Shown piece after piece: positions 60,519 to 63,881 of a stretch of 64,000 nucleotides of DNA. The position numbers and the translations under genes were made by a program. The notes beneath the pieces were generated by a model. That model had not been told where the DNA came from. It worked only from the letters and a program-made list of their open reading frames with translations, and made no database searches. This stretch comes from an uncultured bacterium (GTDB lineage: Bacteria > Patescibacteriota > Minisyncoccia > Minisyncoccales > Staskawiczbacteraceae). Location of the stretch: positions 31,928 through 95,927 of the forward strand of contig CAWIDW010000003.1 in assembly GCA_963835045.1 (NCBI GenBank), read 5' to 3'. Each line of letters starts with the position of its first letter. Position 1 is the first letter of the stretch.

Positions 60519-60548
60519 TTGACAAATTTTAAAAAAATATGATATAAT
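60519..60548 (+). promoter_or_regulatory. strong sigma70-type promoter driving the structured-RNA/recombinase locus
   Basis: Consensus TTGACA (60519-60524), 18-nt AT-rich spacer, consensus TATAAT (60543-60548). It is the only double-consensus promoter I found in the window. Confidence 0.75.
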
Positions 60549-60554
60549 ATAGAG

Positions 60555-60765
60555 GTATTGGGTCCAGAGGTTCACACCCCTTAGGGGTCATTGTAATGTT
60601 ACCCAATGCCAATATTGCGGATGCAGGAAACCCTACCTTGAATGGTGTAATGGATGGTATCCGTAATTTGCCCGTCACGAGCAAACTCAAAGCTCTTTTC
60701 AATAGATTTTTGGCGGTGAGTAATTGAAAATCCATTTTGGATGAGAGGTTCTTTACTGCCAAAAA
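60555..60765 (+). repeat. module 0 (degenerate leader)
   Basis: 10-bp stem ggtattgggt/acccaatgcc (60555-60564 / 60601-60610) enclosing ACCCCttaGGGGT. A P4-like GGATG...ATCC at 60619-60662. P5 TTTTTGGCGGTG...ACTGCCAAAAA at 60707-60765. Confidence 0.6.
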
Positions 60766-60766
60766 A

Positions 60767-61039
60767 AAGAAGCGTCTGGAAACGGCTATCTTCCGAGATA
60801 ATACCTCAGCTACGCTTCTTGGGCGAGATAATACAGCTTGTATCCTTTTAAGGATATGGATGCACTTATCTCGCCCTCTTTTTACAGCAATGAAAATGCT
60901 TTGATTTCTGTAAAAAGGGGATGATTGTGGGTTTACCTATCATAGGTGGTGATTTACATATCCTCTTTGTTCTTTCAATAATTTTGGTGGTGATTGTGGG
61001 CCTACTCTTATTGAGTGAAAGATGAATTACCATCAAAAA
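60767..61039 (+). repeat. module 1 (P1-P5 complete)
   Basis: P1 AAGAAGCGT/ACGCTTCTT 60767-60820. P2 GGGCGAGATAA/TTATCTCGCCC 60821-60876. P3 CTTTTTACAG/CTGTAAAAAG 60878-60917. P4 GGGGATG/ATCCTC 60917-60965. Linker TCTTTGTTCTTTCAATAA. P5 TTTTGGTGGTG/ACCATCAAAAA 60982-61039. Confidence 0.8.
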
Positions 61040-61041
61040 CC

Positions 61042-61318
61042 AAAGAAACGTGTGGGATGGTCTACCTTTTTGGGTGCCGATGGCTCTACGTTTCTTTTGG
61101 GCGAGAAGAAGCGGGGAAAATCCTTTTGGATGTCTCTACCTATCTCTCGCCCCTTTTCTAAAGAAATTAACTTAGGTTAATTTTTCTAGAAAGGGGATGG
61201 CAGTTTGTGTACCTGATTAAGGTGAGTCCAAAACTATCCCCCTTTGTTCTTTCAGTAACTTTTGGCGATGACTCTGTAACTACTTTTAATCAAGTGACGG
61301 ATGCAATGTCGCCAAAAA
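61042..61318 (+). repeat. module 2 (P1-P5 complete)
   Basis: P1 AAAGAAACGT/ACGTTTCTTT 61042-61097. P2 GGGCGAGA/TCTCGCCC 61099-61152. P3 CCCCTTTTCTA/TAGAAAGGGG 61150-61196. P4 GGGGATGG/ATCCCC 61193-61241. P5 TTTTGGCGATG/GTCGCCAAAAA 61260-61318. Confidence 0.8.
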
Positions 61319-61320
61319 CC

Positions 61321-61558
61321 AAAGAAGCGTGTCGTTGTTGGTACTCTTCGGAGTGCAGGGCTACGTACGTTTCTTTGAAAGCCCCGCACCGCCATATGGT
61401 GCGGGGCAGAATCACGGGCGAGATGAACGAGCTTTTATCCTTTTAGGATGAGAGGAAGGTTATCTCGCCCCCTCTTTGGAAAAATTCATGCTATGGATTT
61501 TTGCAAAGAGGGGATGTCAGGTACTTTACTTTTTATAGTGAGATTACCTGTATTTCCT
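61321..61558 (+). repeat. module 3 (P1-P4; the recombinase gene follows where P5 would be)
   Basis: P1 61321-61376. An extra perfect 10-bp GC hairpin GCCCCGCACC/GGTGCGGGGC at 61381-61407. P2 61416-61470. P3 CCTCTTTG/CAAAGAGG 61469-61513. P4-like 61508-61558. Then a small hairpin at 61575-61593 and AAGGAG. Confidence 0.75.
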
Positions 61559-61632
61559 CCGTTCTTTGAAAAGCGCTCAAAGTGTTTTTGAGCCATCAAT
61601 TCGTGTCCCATTATTCCCCAAAGGAGACCAAA

Positions 61633-63228
61633 ATGGGCAGACTGTTGAGTTTTTGTTTTCGGACCAAAAAGACCGTCAAAGGTGACGCGCGACCGACGAT
61701 TGTGGCCATTCAAACCGGCGACAAGATTGTCGAGCGCAAGCTGGCGGAGGTTGATGACGAACGGGATTTTGCCATGGGGCGTTTCCCGATCAGTTATCGA
61801 AGCGTCCAGGATCACGAAGATATTTCCGGTTTTTTGCCGCGCCAATGCAAATGGCGCAGGGTAGAAGACGGTGAAGATGTTTCAGGTTTGGATGCAAAAC
61901 ATCTGCGCCAGGTTGGCAGTGGTAAAGATAAACATCTGGAGCTTTGCACCGATGTACCAGATGAGTTTGAAGGTCTTGGCGTGGGAGATTCGGTGGTTAT
62001 GGCATTGGGTGCCGGCGATTTACTAGCGGCCATGCTCTTTGCCAAAGGCAAGAAGTCTTTGGTCAAAGTGTGGCGTACCCCCCCCTCGCATCTGAAAAGT
62101 TACCGACCCAAACAAGACTGCGAAAACAAGGACAACGACCATGTCTATCTTTTGGAAATGTTTCAAAAGCAGGCGGCGCCTTTTTACGAGTTCCGCCAAC
62201 CCGATATGTCACTGGTCAGTGTGGCCGTCAAGCTGCGCTTGAGGATGGAAACTCAAGGACAGCGCATCGCCGCTGAAAACCGTCTGCGCCAGTGGGTCAA
62301 AGACCAGATGTACCTTTTTGATGGAGAGGAGGAGGATGTCAACGAATGGATTGAAGAGCGTTGCAAGATTCTCATGCGCGATGATCCGGTGCATGCCGCG
62401 CTGGTCAAGGAAGAAAAGTCGCGCGATCGGGAATTGCGCCTGGCAGTTGAGTCAACCGATGCCTGGCAAATTTTTGAACCGATAGAGGGCGTAGGTCCTC
62501 GCATCGCGGCCGGCTTTTTGTGCATCGGTGACATTCGTCGGTTTCAAGTTGAGCCAAACTTTGACGGTGCTGATACCGATGAAGAACGGCAAAAACGCAA
62601 AAACAAAGCTATGCAAAAAGGCGCGGCAAAGATGATGGCCTACTGTGGCCTTCATACCACGGCCAATGCTTCCGGTCCCGACGCGAATTTTTACCGCGTT
62701 TTCCCCCGCCACAAAACGGGTGAAGTGGGCAATTGGTCAACCGAGCTGCGCCAGACTTTTTTCCAACTGGCCGAGCAACTCAACAAAAAGCCCAAATCTG
62801 TCTGGGGCAAAAAGCTCTTGGAGTTTAAGGATGGTTTTTACCAAAAGCATCCCTATCCCATCAAGTGCGACAAAAAATTGGTCAAAATATTTCGGTCCCT
62901 GGAGTTGTTCTTCAGGGAAAAAGCCGGAGTGCACATTCAGCCAGCCAATTACGTAATTGATTCGATTGAGAGTTTGCAGGATTGGTTTGATGGCTGCTGT
63001 TCCATGCTGGACGTAAGTAGATTTAACCGTTTATCCGCCGAAATTGAGCAATGGCAAGAGCAAATTGCCAAGGCTCAAGTGGAAGGTAAAACGGTTAAGC
63101 TCTTCACTCCCGGCCACTTGTTAAAAATGGCCAAGTGGAGAACCTTAACGCGCTTTGCCCGTTGGTTATTTCCGCAGTTGGTAAAAGTCATGGGCAAACG
63201 AATTGAAAACCAAGAAAACGCCGCTTAG
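61633..63228 (+). CDS. divergent, enlarged IS110/Piv-family (DEDD RuvC-like plus Tnp_20 serine domain) recombinase
   Basis: AAGGAG lies 6 nt upstream of the ATG at 61633, in frame within ORF 61582..63228. By-eye matches to the IS110 family: GLDAK (first Asp), NKDNDHVYLLEMF (like ..K(T)D..DA..LA.f), FEPIEGVGPRIAAGFLCIGDIRRF (like iPGIG..tAa.l.aeiGd..RF), MAYCGLHTTANASG (like aaYaGL.P....SG) and GNWSTELRQTFF (like G...LR.aly). Confidence 0.7.
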   Translation: MGRLLSFCFRTKKTVKGDARPTIVAIQTGDKIVERKLAEVDDERDFAMGRFPISYRSVQDHEDISGFLPRQCKWRRVEDGEDVSGLDAKHLRQVGSGKDKHLELCTDVPDEFEGLGVGDSVVMALGAGDLLAAMLFAKGKKSLVKVWRTPPSHLKSYRPKQDCENKDNDHVYLLEMFQKQAAPFYEFRQPDMSLVSVAVKLRLRMETQGQRIAAENRLRQWVKDQMYLFDGEEEDVNEWIEERCKILMRDDPVHAALVKEEKSRDRELRLAVESTDAWQIFEPIEGVGPRIAAGFLCIGDIRRFQVEPNFDGADTDEERQKRKNKAMQKGAAKMMAYCGLHTTANASGPDANFYRVFPRHKTGEVGNWSTELRQTFFQLAEQLNKKPKSVWGKKLLEFKDGFYQKHPYPIKCDKKLVKIFRSLELFFREKAGVHIQPANYVIDSIESLQDWFDGCCSMLDVSRFNRLSAEIEQWQEQIAKAQVEGKTVKLFTPGHLLKMAKWRTLTRFARWLFPQLVKVMGKRIENQENAA

Positions 63229-63275
63229 TTTGCTAAGTGTGCATTTTCAAAAATTCACAAGCAATTGTGAATTTC

Positions 63276-63495
63276 GGGCGAGATGAGATGTTACATACCC
63301 TTCCAAGGATAATGGTCTCCTTATCTCGCCCCTTTTTTACAGCCATCAAAAATTTGATTGTTGTAAAAAGGGGATGTAACGGAGAAAACCCAGATTGGGT
63401 GACAATTCGAGTATCCTCTTTGTTCTTTCAATAATTTTTGGCGGTGAGGCGCAGGATGCCTATTTTTAGGTGAAGTTGAACCTACCGCCAAAAAA
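63276..63495 (+). repeat. module 4 (P2-P5)
   Basis: P2 GGGCGAGATGAG/TTATCTCGCCC 63276-63331. P3 63329-63373. P4 GGGGATG/ATCCTC 63370-63418. Linker TCTTTGTTCTTTCAATAA. P5 TTTTTGGCGGTG/TACCGCCAAAAA 63435-63495. Confidence 0.8.
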
Positions 63496-63765
63496 AGAAA
63501 TGTGCAATTGCTCGCACTCTTTTGAGTGTAAGCTAAAGTGCATTTCTTTGGGCGAGATGATCGTTGAAGTATCTTATAGATGCCCCTCGGTTTATCTCGC
63601 CCCCTTTTTACAGCTATGGAAAAATCAATGGCTGTAAAAAGGGGATGGTTGGACATTTACCTTTACAGGTAATCACTGATTTATCCCCTTTGCTCCTTCC
63701 AGAATTTTGGCGGTGCCATGATTCCTACTCACAGCGAGTGTTAGTATTAGTATCGCCAAAAAAAA
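63494..63765 (+). repeat. module 5 (P1-P5 complete)
   Basis: P1 AAAGAAATG/CATTTCTTT 63494-63549. P2 63550-63602. P3 CCCCTTTTTACAGC/GCTGTAAAAAGGGG 63601-63644. P4 GGGGATGG/ATCCCC 63641-63688. P5 TTTTGGCGGTG/ATCGCCAAAAAAAA 63705-63765. Confidence 0.8.
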
Positions 63766-63881
63766 GAAGCGTGTTTCTACCATTACCTTTTAAGGTCTGA
63801 AGTGATGTACGCTTCTTGGGCAAGATGAGTTGGCAGATATCCTTTTTTGGGATTAAGGTTCACACATCTTGCCCTTTTTTT
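63764..63881 (+). repeat. module 6 (P1-P2 only; P2 doubles as terminator)
   Basis: P1 AAGAAGCGT/ACGCTTCTT 63764-63817. P2 with a compensated stem GGGCAAGATG/CATCTTGCCC 63818-63874, followed by T7. Confidence 0.75.
63818..63881 (+). terminator. terminal P2 hairpin plus U-tract, likely the terminator of the locus
   Basis: GGGCAAGATG...CATCTTGCCC followed by TTTTTTT (63875-63881). No module sequence occurs beyond this point. Confidence 0.6.

Follow-up and report, generated by a model that had tools for sequence, protein, structure and literature searches.

Organization of the locus

Positions 60519–63881 (+) of the window, i.e. the whole 64-kb stretch of DNA that was analysed, contain a consensus promoter followed by 14 hairpin units, a gene for a 531-aa protein, nine more units and a T7 run. 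The elements named in the initial annotation were all recovered in place; its multiplicity of hairpins stands, and its count of about 20 becomes 23 (14 upstream and 9 downstream of the gene). The double-consensus promoter that it had placed after the terminator of the upstream operon matches the consensus at 12 of 12 positions (60519–60548), and the terminator hairpin lies at ~60464–60490. About 1.08 kb had been described as free of credible ORFs, and the + strand ORFs of 60549–61632 do not exceed 79 aa. The AAGGAG sequence (61621–61626) is separated by 6 nt from the ATG at 61633, and the 531-aa ORF ends at 63228, as annotated. Downstream of the gene are 653 nt of like modules (about 650 nt previously), with the last hairpin at 63818–63874; unit 23 and the T7 run (63875–63881) also act as intrinsic terminator for the locus. 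Direct-repeat families recur at a spacing of 269–318 nt upstream and downstream of the gene, in agreement with the tandem modules of 270–320 nt proposed before. The CRISPR-array-like layout on both flanks, with 14 and 9 units around the gene, is real.

TIGR-Tas systems comprise a TIGR array (tandem interspaced guide RNA) and a TIGR-associated protein. The names tasR and tigRNA in the following list anticipate the assignment made below.

60519–60548 (+), sigma-70-type promoter TTGACA-N18-TATAAT with TG extension; consensus 12/12, 8 nt upstream of unit 1
60556–60608 (+), tigRNA unit 1, unique stem, sole unit with 13-nt loop strands; loop A 60564–60576, loop B 60588–60600; covariance model 35 bits
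60614–60667 (+), tigRNA unit 2, unique stem; loop A 60623–60634, loop B 60647–60658
60707–60765 (+), tigRNA unit 3, type C stem UUUUUGGCGGU; loop A 60718–60729, loop B 60743–60754
60767–60820 (+), tigRNA unit 4, type D stem AAGAAGCGU; loop A 60776–60787, loop B 60800–60811
60821–60876 (+), tigRNA unit 5, type A stem GGGCGAGAU; loop A 60830–60841, loop B 60856–60867
60874–60920 (+), P hairpin 1, near-perfect AU-rich inter-unit hairpin
60917–60965 (+), tigRNA unit 6, type B stem GGGGAU; loop A 60923–60934, loop B 60948–60959
60982–61038 (+), tigRNA unit 7, type C; loop A 60992–61003, loop B 61017–61028
61042–61097 (+), tigRNA unit 8, type D; loop A 61052–61063, loop B 61076–61087
61099–61152 (+), tigRNA unit 9, type A, 2-nt indel on the 3' side; loop A 61108–61119, loop B 61132–61141
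61150–61196 (+), P hairpin 2
61193–61241 (+), tigRNA unit 10, type B; loop A 61199–61210, loop B 61224–61235
61260–61317 (+), tigRNA unit 11, type C; loop A 61270–61281, loop B 61296–61307
61320–61377 (+), tigRNA unit 12, type D; loop A 61331–61342, loop B 61355–61366
61384–61407 (+), extra GC-rich perfect hairpin CCCCGCACC...GGUGCGGGG, stretching the third module to ~318 nt
61416–61470 (+), tigRNA unit 13, type A; loop A 61425–61436, loop B 61450–61461; covariance model 50.3 bits, the best
61468–61513 (+), P hairpin 3
61510–61559 (+), tigRNA unit 14, type B, degenerate 3' stem; loop A 61516–61527, loop B 61540–61551
61560–61632 (+), tasR leader: small hairpin GCUCAAAGUGUUUUUGAGC, conserved tract CAAUUCGUGUCCCAUUAUUCCCCAAAGGAGACCAAA, AAGGAG ribosome-binding site
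61633–63228 (+), tasR, gene for the 531-aa TIGR-associated protein
63251–63274 (+), small perfect hairpin AAAUUCACAAGCAAUUGUGAAUUU between the tasR stop codon and the downstream array
63276–63331 (+), tigRNA unit 15, type A; loop A 63285–63296, loop B 63311–63322
63329–63373 (+), P hairpin 4
63370–63418 (+), tigRNA unit 16, type B; loop A 63376–63387, loop B 63401–63412
63435–63494 (+), tigRNA unit 17, type C; loop A 63446–63457, loop B 63472–63483
63494–63549 (+), tigRNA unit 18, type D; loop A 63504–63515, loop B 63528–63539
63550–63602 (+), tigRNA unit 19, type A; loop A 63559–63570, loop B 63582–63593
63600–63644 (+), P hairpin 5
63641–63688 (+), tigRNA unit 20, type B; loop A 63647–63658, loop B 63671–63682
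63705–63761 (+), tigRNA unit 21, type C; loop A 63715–63726, loop B 63740–63751
63764–63817 (+), tigRNA unit 22, type D; loop A 63773–63784, loop B 63797–63808
63818–63881 (+), tigRNA unit 23, type A variant GGGCAAGAU, with T7 run; loop A 63827–63838, loop B 63854–63865

Contig L001, which is independent and comes from another sample, encodes a protein 65% identical to that of the window; its array repeats the stems of the window in unchanged order, and the spacers differ. An assembly artefact, which the initial annotation had allowed for, is therefore ruled out. The leader tract CAAUUCGUGUCCCAUUAUUCCCCAAAGGAGACCAAA is nearly identical in L001 (4150–4194). A GC-rich hairpin comparable to that at 61384–61407 lies at ~6320–6350 of the same contig.

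Architecture and covariation of the hairpin units

All 23 units follow a common plan: a basal stem of 6–11 bp, a 12-nt strand, an apical hairpin of 3–6 bp and a second 12-nt strand. The range of the basal stem is slightly wider than the 8–11 bp given previously, and the apical stem is 3–6 bp, not 4–6 bp. The unpaired segments, described before as 10–12 nt long and different in every copy, are indeed variable, but their lengths are more regular (exactly 12 nt in 43 of 46). Of 43 such strands, 35 begin with G (position 1) and 38 end with U (position 12). With the closing-pair nucleotides in brackets, each unit reads basal stem, (U)G-N10-U(A), apical hairpin, (U)G-N10-U(A), basal stem, and thus contains two variable 10-nt spacers, A and B. 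The spacers are bordered by one short conserved motif and a closing pair (U-A and A-U in the window units), alike at the basal and apical helices. The inner 10 nt show chance-level identity between copies: within a stem type, the stems are 77–100% identical and the spacers 25–33%, against 25.7% expected by chance. The motif AGGUUC recurs in three spacers.

The array is built as a five-element super-repeat. The array includes five near-perfect "P" hairpins of 17–21 bp, each between a type A and a type B unit, which the initial annotation did not set apart when it treated the hairpins of a module as one class. A CUU processing motif was found after D, B and A units and not after C units; a conserved CUU processing motif has been reported for other stem-loop arrays.

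Covariation of the stems was strong. In the window units, 98.6% of the stem cells are paired, compared with ~46% when the partners are slid by 1–3 columns; two-sided changes occur in 102 stem cells, and none of 500 shuffles reached the observed covariation score. The 57 units from 13 other loci of candidate-phyla-radiation (CPR) bacteria gave the same picture (96% paired, 253 two-sided changes). The basal and apical closing pairs switch jointly between loci, being either U-A/A-U or C-G/G-C, as is required by a symmetric dimer. Between L001 and the window the scaffold is kept and no spacer is shared, and homologous genes in dozens of CPR loci are flanked by a like hairpin unit. A covariance model built from the window's own units and scanned over the 64-kb window had no match outside the units. 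It scored higher on the + strand at every unit, and the stems contain 15 G-U pairs; the RNA is therefore on the gene strand.

Family and fold of the encoded protein

The N-domain of the 531-aa protein is RuvC-like but degenerate, the C-domain is Nop/IS110-Tnp-like and carries insertions, and the protein also has a coiled coil. It matches NCBIfam NF052498 ("TIGR-Tas system RNA-guided endonuclease") over aa 201–415 with E 1e-25 and 91 bits, just below the curated cut-off of 100; all 14 members of the family alignment match this model (best 9e-48). The protein alone had no match to PDB sequences by phmmer. The family profile matched 9mty_A (TIGR-TasR) with E 3.9e-26 and IS621 with E 6.6e-4. The AlphaFold model (pLDDT 85, pTM 0.77) gave chains B and A of 9MTY as the top Foldseek matches (E 1.7e-7, target-normalised TM 0.60), followed by IS621, ISCro4 and TasH structures; among the solved proteins, IS621 comes second to TasR.

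The protein had initially been assigned to the IS110/Piv recombinases. It does not match Pfam PF01548 or PF02371 even at E ≤ 1, and the structure comparison proposed with IS621 ranks TasR first. A kinship with IS110-family enzymes does hold: two NCBIfam IS110 models match weakly (E 2.6e-5 and 3.6e-5, ~23 bits against 91 bits for TIGR-Tas), and PF02371 is matched by 10 of the 14 alignment sequences, the window protein not among them. As judged from sequence and the predicted model, the protein is a TIGR-associated TasR and not an IS110 recombinase.

Catalytic residues and comparison with known systems

The system type, of which the initial annotation was not aware of any description, is already known. 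Faure et al. (Science 2025, PMC12045711) described stem-loop arrays having two 8–12-nt spacers with box C/D flanks. TasR proteins of the CPR clade, with an inactive RuvC domain and stem-loop arrays on both flanks with two 10-nt spacers, have been described as RNA-guided repressors (PMC12045711; Xu et al. 2026, bioRxiv 10.64898/2026.09.09.750476). In CsTasR (547 aa), tigRNAs lie upstream as well as downstream of the gene and have extended stems plus two spacers of 10 nt with a 5-bp stem in between. Its RuvC domain is dead (R8, V126); it did not cleave DNA in vitro, it repressed transcription under RNA guidance, and it was solved bound to double-stranded DNA (bioRxiv 10.64898/2026.09.09.750476). 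The present locus is a further stem-loop TIGR-TasR case. The five-element super-repeat and the conserved ~20-bp inter-unit hairpins were not found in the text of these two papers.

TaTasR, the protein in 9MTY, is an active nuclease, and mutation of its first catalytic Asp (D11A) makes it dead. Although TaTasR is the closest solved structure, a system that likewise cuts DNA under RNA guidance, as a defence or an inter-element weapon, is unlikely here. D11 has no counterpart in the window protein, which lacks any acidic residue within residues 1–17, the expected place of the first DEDD aspartate. The β1 strand reads LLSFC, and IGIRH in homologs, which carry Arg at this position as in the non-cleaving CsTasR (R8). 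Two later acidic residues, the D-x-D of the RuvC motif in KDNDH (aa 166–170), as well as E43, D45, D119 and D129, are conserved in the family and would fit an active enzyme. In the RuvC-like domain, at least two catalytic carboxylates, the first and the second, are probably missing, with C8 and probably A124 at their positions. Because of this loss, DNA binding without cutting is predicted.

Alternative interpretations

Compared with such DNA binding, a box C/D-like ribonucleoprotein that targets rRNA or tRNA seems improbable. Two guides with symmetric box motifs, a Nop-domain dimer and a dead RuvC domain parallel archaeal box C/D sRNPs, the recurrence of AGGUUC would agree with it, and Faure et al. 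(PMC12045711) speculated that the CPR clade may represent a stage on the way to box C/D snoRNPs. However, no fibrillarin-like methyltransferase is among the five annotated upstream genes (57896–60450), the related CsTasR represses transcription and was solved on double-stranded DNA, and the window contains no rRNA, tRNA or any Rfam family to be compared for complementarity.

Still less probable is an IS110-type recombinase using many bridge-RNA-like guides for multiplexed programmable recombination. Besides the distant homology and the IS621 fold match, an (A/N)-S-G tripeptide lies in an insertion of the window protein and its 65% relative, near the place of E-S241-G in IS621. Opposite the catalytic S241, however, the family profile has the consensus Asp of "pDG", in a column not conserved as Ser, and the Pfam matches and the first DEDD Asp are missing. 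In a bridge RNA, the target and donor loops are separate parts of a single molecule, whereas each unit here holds its two 10-nt spacers in one internal loop; the bridge-RNA reading fails on this point, and the idea of an array of guide-type RNAs for the embedded protein survives. Furthermore, the tasR-like gene is single-copy within the 64-kb window, no insertion-sequence terminal repeats were found at the locus, and characterised relatives bind or cut DNA without recombining it.

The view of the hairpins as piled-up, decayed insertion-sequence ends, or as a structural non-coding RNA without relation to the gene, has repetitiveness alone in its favour and is effectively refuted by the compensatory stem changes and the recurrence of a like unit beside homologous genes in dozens of CPR loci, together with the uniform 12-nt loops, the chance-level spacer identity and the position of every unit on the gene strand.

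Proposed mode of action

We consider the locus to be a stem-loop TIGR-Tas locus of the CPR/Patescibacteria clade, whose TasR would bind DNA without cutting it, with a probability of about 0.88. By analogy with the published family, the ~3.36-kb region would be transcribed as one precursor that is also the tasR mRNA. Host RNases would cut it into single hairpin tigRNAs of ~50–60 nt, and a TasR dimer would bind one tigRNA via its two symmetric box motifs. Spacers A and B would then pair with opposite DNA strands, in adjacent stretches, over ~9 + 9 bp and with no PAM. The search for loop-segment matches suggested in the initial annotation gave nothing above chance: no spacer-pair targets beyond shuffled controls in the 64-kb window, and chance-like matches only in four 18-mer scans of viral contigs.

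From the sequence and the published relatives, the TasR–tigRNA complex, leaving the bound DNA uncut, is predicted to act neither as a nuclease nor as a recombinase, but as a repressor or roadblock that can be programmed. With its 23 guides, it may address up to 23 different 18-bp sites.

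Organization of the array

The locus is very probably a stem-loop TIGR-Tas system; the anatomy and strand of its array, the covariation of the stems, the homology of its protein and the absence of the first catalytic Asp are shown below. It contains 23 tigRNA hairpin units, which lie on both flanks of the effector gene (tasR) and on the same strand as this gene.

60450: end of the upstream operon, with a terminator hairpin near 60464-60490
60519-60548, + strand: promoter TTGACA-N18-TATAAT with TG extension, 12 of 12 consensus matches
60556-61559, + strand: upstream units, n = 14
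61633-63228, + strand: tasR, 531-aa ORF with an AAGGAG-N6-ATG start
63276-63874, + strand: downstream units, n = 9
63818-63881, + strand: end of the 653-nt 3' flank of tasR, which is similar in sequence to the upstream part; hairpin and T7 run, the terminator at the end of the array

The layout in the initial annotation was borne out by these elements (promoter, 531-aa ORF, 653-nt flank and T7 run), and also by the 1.08 kb between the promoter and tasR, in which the ORF listing contains no credible ORF.

Folding of both flanks and of each hairpin singly gave 23 units of one architecture; the units were parsed by hand and then checked against the sequence. Each unit runs from a 6-11-bp basal stem through a 12-nt strand, a 3-6-bp apical stem and a second 12-nt strand to the return of the basal stem. 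The apical loop has 3-6 nt and is U-rich in most units. The unpaired strands are exactly 12 nt long in 43 of 46 cases; G occupies position 1 in 35 of these 43 and U position 12 in 38, and A is found at position 2 in about half. The basal closing pair is U-A (U on the 5' side in 22 of 23 units, A on the 3' side in 21) and the apical closing pair is A-U (A on the 5' side in 21 of 23, U on the 3' side in 22). This means that each unit has two 10-nt variable segments, and that the same short motif is placed at the basal and at the apical helix.

Direct-repeat families recur on both sides of tasR with a period of 269-318 nt. The recurring elements are in the fixed order C, D, A, P, B and conserved linker, where A to D are classes of basal stem and P is a near-perfect hairpin; this order accounts for the 270-320-nt period.

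Type C basal stem: UUUUGGCGGU
Type D basal stem: AAGAAGCGU
Type A basal stem: GGGCGAGAU
Type B basal stem: GGGGAU
Conserved linker after B: CUUUGUUCUUUCAAUAA

The basal stems of units 1 and 2 are unique. The third module is longer than the others because an extra GC-rich hairpin is inserted at 61384-61407. A GC-rich perfect hairpin between array units is seen both in the window (CCCCGCACC...GGUGCGGGG, flanked by D and A units) and in L001, an independent contig from another sample (CGCGUGACGAAAGUUUUCGUCACGCG, about 6320-6350, flanked by C and D units), so that its place within the module differs. It is not followed by a T run in either.

Covariation of the stems

Basal stems of one type are 77-100% identical to each other, and the 10-nt spacers within a type are 25-33% identical, against 25.7% expected from composition. 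The complementarity of the two segments (A and B) within a unit is not above chance. With the 23 units aligned, standard pairs make up 98.6% of the stem cells, compared with about 46% when the partners are slid. Two-sided changes occur in 102 cells, and the covariation score was reached by none of 500 shuffles. Thus, the stems around the spacer pairs vary in sequence and keep their complementarity, in the window as well as in 57 units of 13 distant CPR loci, in which 96% of the positions are paired and 253 two-sided changes are observed. The covariation check proposed with the initial annotation came out in favor of the hairpins at both levels.

A permissive hairpin search gave hundreds of matches across the window and was dropped in favor of a stricter version and a covariance model. 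The model built from the units recovered all 23 of them and had no other match in the 64-kb window. Its score was higher on the + strand at every unit. The G-U pairs (15 of 299 stem pairs) would be A-C mismatches if read on the other strand. Rfam gave no real match to the array region at E <= 1 (mir-3747 and ncr1241 were far below their gathering scores), no part of the window matched an Rfam 15 family at its gathering score, and ARAGORN found no tRNA gene in the window.

Related loci

The sole close relative of the window protein, P0002 (65% identical), is encoded on L001, which is 7.2 kb long. This contig shows the leader and the A, P, B, C and D stems of the window in unchanged order, with at least 17 units having 12-nt strands. 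No spacer is common to the two loci: identical positions are 2.7 of 10 on average and 7 at maximum. At many distant CPR loci, matches of the model are located on the gene strand, flanking a TasR homolog. Between loci, the basal (U-A or C-G) and apical (A-U or G-C) closing pairs switch jointly, which is what recognition of both ends by a symmetric protein dimer would demand.

The genes flanking the array are those of NUDIX hydrolases and a metallophosphoesterase in the window and of an ABC transporter in L001; in other words, the promoter-to-terminator cassette resides in different genomic contexts. A promoter scan of L001 gave no clean consensus promoter, and conservation of the promoter is therefore not claimed. 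The G+C content is about 50-53% in the tasR coding region (61600-63000) and 34-42% in the neighboring genes and arrays (compared over 57600-61000).

It should be mentioned that the 5' leader of tasR is conserved between the window (61560-61632) and L001 (4120-4194), although the proteins are just 65% identical. The leader has a small hairpin followed by CAAUUCGUGU(C/G)CCAUU(A/U)UU(C/-)CCCAAAGGAGACCAA. A role in regulation or processing is possible, and none of the spacer pairs matches the leader.

Family and fold of the protein

The window protein matches the NCBIfam model NF052498, "TIGR-Tas system RNA-guided endonuclease", with an E value of 1e-25 and 91 bits, which is below the cut-off of 100, while the NCBIfam IS110 models reach about 23 bits. 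All 14 aligned family members match NF052498 (best E value 9e-48), and the IS110 models are much weaker in these as well. With Pfam, nothing relevant was found for the window protein apart from a single chance match of 13.5 bits; in particular, PF01548 did not match it, and matched one of 14 relatives with an E value of 0.0011. The recombinase assignment of the initial annotation, for which a Pfam search for IS110 domains had been proposed, is contradicted by these scores together with the absence of the first RuvC Asp.

A phmmer search of the PDB with the window protein alone gave chance matches only, and a family profile was therefore needed. The profile matched 9mty_A, a solved TIGR-TasR, with an E value of 3.9e-26, and IS621 with 6.6e-4. 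The AlphaFold model, built from the 14-sequence alignment, was confident, with a pLDDT of 85 and a pTM of 0.77. Its best Foldseek matches were chains B and A of 9MTY (E value 1.7e-7, TM score 0.60 on the target), followed by IS621, ISCro4 and TasH complexes, with nothing further significant. In the proposed structural comparison, IS621 is among the fold matches, but 9MTY is the best of them. NF052498, the 9MTY profile match and the fold all point to a Tas-type Nop domain in the effector.

The family comprises 362 clusters at 50% identity (E < 1e-30). Other than the 65% identical protein, database relatives are at most 42% identical, and the best relative in a scan of a genome collection was 39% identical. 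Most of the 80 related genomic loci have CPR/Patescibacteria-type record titles; about a dozen have another lineage label or none. One copy of tasR is present in the 64-kb window and the repeat search found no flanking inverted repeats at the locus, although this test for a mobile element (copy number and ends) covers one window and is limited evidence.

The database record of the window protein (P0001) has 548 aa and begins at GTG 61582; ATG 61633 has AAGGAG 6 nt upstream. All homologs start at a Met aligned with ATG 61633. The 17-aa extension of P0001 is probably due to a mis-called start overlapping the conserved leader.

RuvC positions and the recombinase reading

The β1 strand of TaTasR and of IS621 contains the first RuvC carboxylate (D11). 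The corresponding β1 strand of the window protein is formed by residues 4-8 (LLSFC), and no Asp or Glu occurs before residue 18. Residue 8 is Cys; in the homologs it is Arg (IGIRH), as is R8 of CsTasR. The second RuvC position seems to be A124, when VVMALGAG is aligned by eye with the IS110 motif v.mEaTG. Judged from its sequence, the window protein would be a CPR-clade TasR with substituted RuvC positions, R8 and V126 being those of CsTasR.

The IS621 nucleophile, S241, aligns with the Asp of the family consensus "pDG", and this column is occupied by D, E or G in the homologs. The window protein's own alignment at S241 is ambiguous owing to a 9-aa insertion with "ASG" there. This insertion of about nine residues with (A/N)-S-G (residues 340-357, nt about 62650-62703) is found in the window TasR and in its 65% identical relative, at the place where IS621 has the catalytic E-S241-G and most family members have P-D-G. 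It is solely through this insertion that the recombinase reading is kept alive, and the insertion is probably incidental.

Comparison with known systems

TIGR arrays and Tas proteins were defined by Faure et al. (Science 2025; PMC12045711), who showed DNA targeting by tandem spacers, pointed to a relationship with IS110 and box C/D systems and first noted the CPR clade. Xu et al. (2026; bioRxiv 10.64898/2026.09.09.750476) catalogued 2,559 stem-loop arrays with 17,756 tigRNAs, a mean of about 7 per array, and solved the structure of CsTasR, a 547-aa protein from Candidatus Staskawiczbacteria (CPR). According to that work, tigRNAs are encoded upstream as well as downstream of the CsTasR gene; their stems are extended, and a 5-bp stem separates their two 10-nt spacers. 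CsTasR has a dead RuvC domain (R8, V126), does not cleave, and acts in RNA-guided transcriptional repression. The anatomy of the window locus agrees in all its features with the descriptions in these two papers, which makes it a member of a known family rather than a new class. The claim that such a system was undescribed cannot be upheld, since the family appeared in Science in February 2025 and the clade was characterized structurally and functionally in the preprint of September 2026; the discovery value is small for the same reason.

The window locus resembles that of CsTasR in its probable CPR-type context, its large TasR (531 vs 547 aa) with an N-terminal RuvC-like domain lacking catalytic residues, its extended basal stems, its two 10-nt spacers and its short inter-spacer stem (3-6 bp here, 5 bp in CsTasR). 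A terminator at the array end is shared with the CPR-clade stem-loop TIGR-TasR systems. The number of units, 23, differs from the mean of about 7 tigRNAs in stem-loop arrays. Identity with CsTasR itself was ruled out: at residue 8, where CsTasR has Arg, the 531-aa reading has Cys and the 548-aa reading Val, and neither length equals 547 aa.

TaTasR (9MTY), from a dual-repeat TIGR-TasR system, is the best match in both profile and fold, and shares the tandem-spacer guide, the symmetric box motifs and the Nop-domain dimer. However, it has 331 aa and an active RuvC domain (D11), and its 36-nt tigRNAs are cut from alternating edge and loop repeats without long stems. Its box motifs are CCA/UG, those of the window locus YGA...UR.

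With IS110 and IS621, the window locus has in common an RNA-binding (Nop/Tnp-like) domain of common ancestry, including the GxGP helix-hairpin-helix motif, bipartite guides in the internal loops of hairpins, and a guide RNA encoded beside the gene. The RuvC domain of IS110 has the complete DEDD set, whereas the window protein lacks the first Asp. In IS110, a single bridge RNA of about 150-250 nt carries both the target and the donor loop, in contrast to the 23 single-loop hairpins of about 50-60 nt found here; as these are separate hairpins without a real Rfam match, the bridge-RNA reading is abandoned. IS110 elements are mobile and multicopy, and the window gene is single-copy. What stands of the earlier interpretation is a guide array belonging to an IS110 relative; the recombinase with its bridge RNA does not.

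Archaeal box C/D sRNPs (Nop5-fibrillarin-L7Ae) are similar to the complex predicted here in that their Nop-domain protein is a coiled-coil dimer whose RuvC-like N-domain is inactive, and in that two guides of their guide RNA lie between the C/D and C'/D' boxes. The k-turn boxes RUGAUGA/CUGA are absent here, the motif being merely (U)GA...U(A), and no real Rfam match was obtained. Furthermore, no fibrillarin partner was seen among the five annotated upstream genes (57896-60450), and the published TasR relatives target DNA. The similarity to CRISPR arrays lies in the promoter, the alternation of conserved scaffolds with hypervariable guides and the adjoining effector gene. Each unit here, though, has two short spacers that would read opposite DNA strands, and its scaffold is a hairpin that differs in sequence between neighboring units; cas1/cas2 adaptation genes are absent, and no PAM is expected.

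Spacers and their targets

Searches of the 64-kb window with the 20-mers and with four 18-mer geometries (A+rcB or rcB+A, either end unpaired) gave counts equal to those of shuffled spacers. Four 18-mer scans of viral contigs with units 12 and 17 gave 4, 0, 12 and 1 matches. These are in unrelated GC-rich phage contigs, and seven of the 12 are one sequence; no matched viral contig has a second spacer match. The viral matches were judged to be due to chance. Faure et al. (PMC12045711) and Xu et al. (bioRxiv 10.64898/2026.09.09.750476) both state that natural targets can mostly not be determined, and the chance-level results agree with the statement of the latter that short spacers lead to many false positives.

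The spacers are not fully independent of one another: three spacer pairs share substrings of at least 8 nt, a number reached by 2 of 300 shuffles. Spacer A of unit 1 and spacer B of unit 23, the first and last units, share AGGUUCACA (60568-60582 vs 63856-63870). Spacer B of unit 3 (60718-60754) shares AGAGGUUC with unit 1. Units 6 and 7, neighbors that differ in stem type, have GAUUGUGGG in common (60923-60934 vs 60992-61003).

P hairpins and the repeating module

Each P hairpin is a near-perfect, AU-rich helix of 17-21 bp that separates an A-type from a B-type unit; the window has five and L001 six.

Window: 60874-60920, 61150-61196, 61468-61513, 63329-63373, 63600-63644
L001: 4024-4068, 5927-5971, 6176-6217, 6462-6503, 6715-6755, 6972-7013

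The lower stem is conserved (CCCUUUUU/AAAAAGGG), whereas the upper stem is variable yet complementary. Compensatory changes are seen at ten of the 19 predicted pairs, and G-U pairs are common. Of 81 related loci, 58 have two or more hairpins of 15-25 bp. When ten stretches from seven loci were folded, six had a P-like hairpin directly 3' of a GGGCGAGA-type unit; in a seventh (from locus L018), the P-like hairpin follows a unit with a different stem. Recurring stem types are also observed in another related locus (L039), which means that the super-repeat is not unique to the window. The text available of Faure et al. and of Xu et al. makes no mention of the five-element super-repeat or of the P hairpins.

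Dual-repeat arrays lack the long duplexes needed by RNase III (Faure et al., PMC12045711), and stem-loop processing was left unexplained by Xu et al. (bioRxiv 10.64898/2026.09.09.750476). It might be speculated that the P helices are a signal for tigRNA processing, for example RNase III-type sites. As for the growth of the arrays, we consider it possible, though rather unlikely, that CPR-type TIGR arrays descend from an ancestral composite module and grew by duplication of the whole module, with every spacer replaced. Such a module may have consisted of an A unit, a P hairpin of about 20 bp and a B unit stacked end to end, the C and D units being added here.

Proposed mechanism and implications

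By analogy with the published systems, a single precursor transcript would extend from the promoter to the T7 run, and host RNases would cut it into single hairpin tigRNAs. A TasR dimer would bind one tigRNA. The two spacers would then pair with neighboring stretches of opposite DNA strands, spacer A on one and spacer B on the other, over a total of about 18 bp. The outcome would be DNA binding without cleavage, acting as repression or as a roadblock.

The locus is a clean and large natural example, with 23 guides in an apparent single promoter-to-terminator unit that carries the tasR mRNA. This unit bears on the question of co-transcription versus separate promoters, left open by Xu et al. 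(bioRxiv 10.64898/2026.09.09.750476). How tigRNAs mature and how arrays grow could be tested on the four stem types and the P hairpins, and likewise on the independent L001 locus (protein 65% identical), which has the same scaffold but none of the spacers of the window. A multi-unit super-repeat with total turnover of its spacers bears on how arrays grow: if true, module duplication with spacer replacement would imply a process of spacer renewal that spares the scaffold, the alternative being very old duplications kept by selection. Both Faure et al. and Xu et al. named tigRNA maturation and spacer acquisition as open questions, and the P helices and the module duplication, if either is true, would bear on them.
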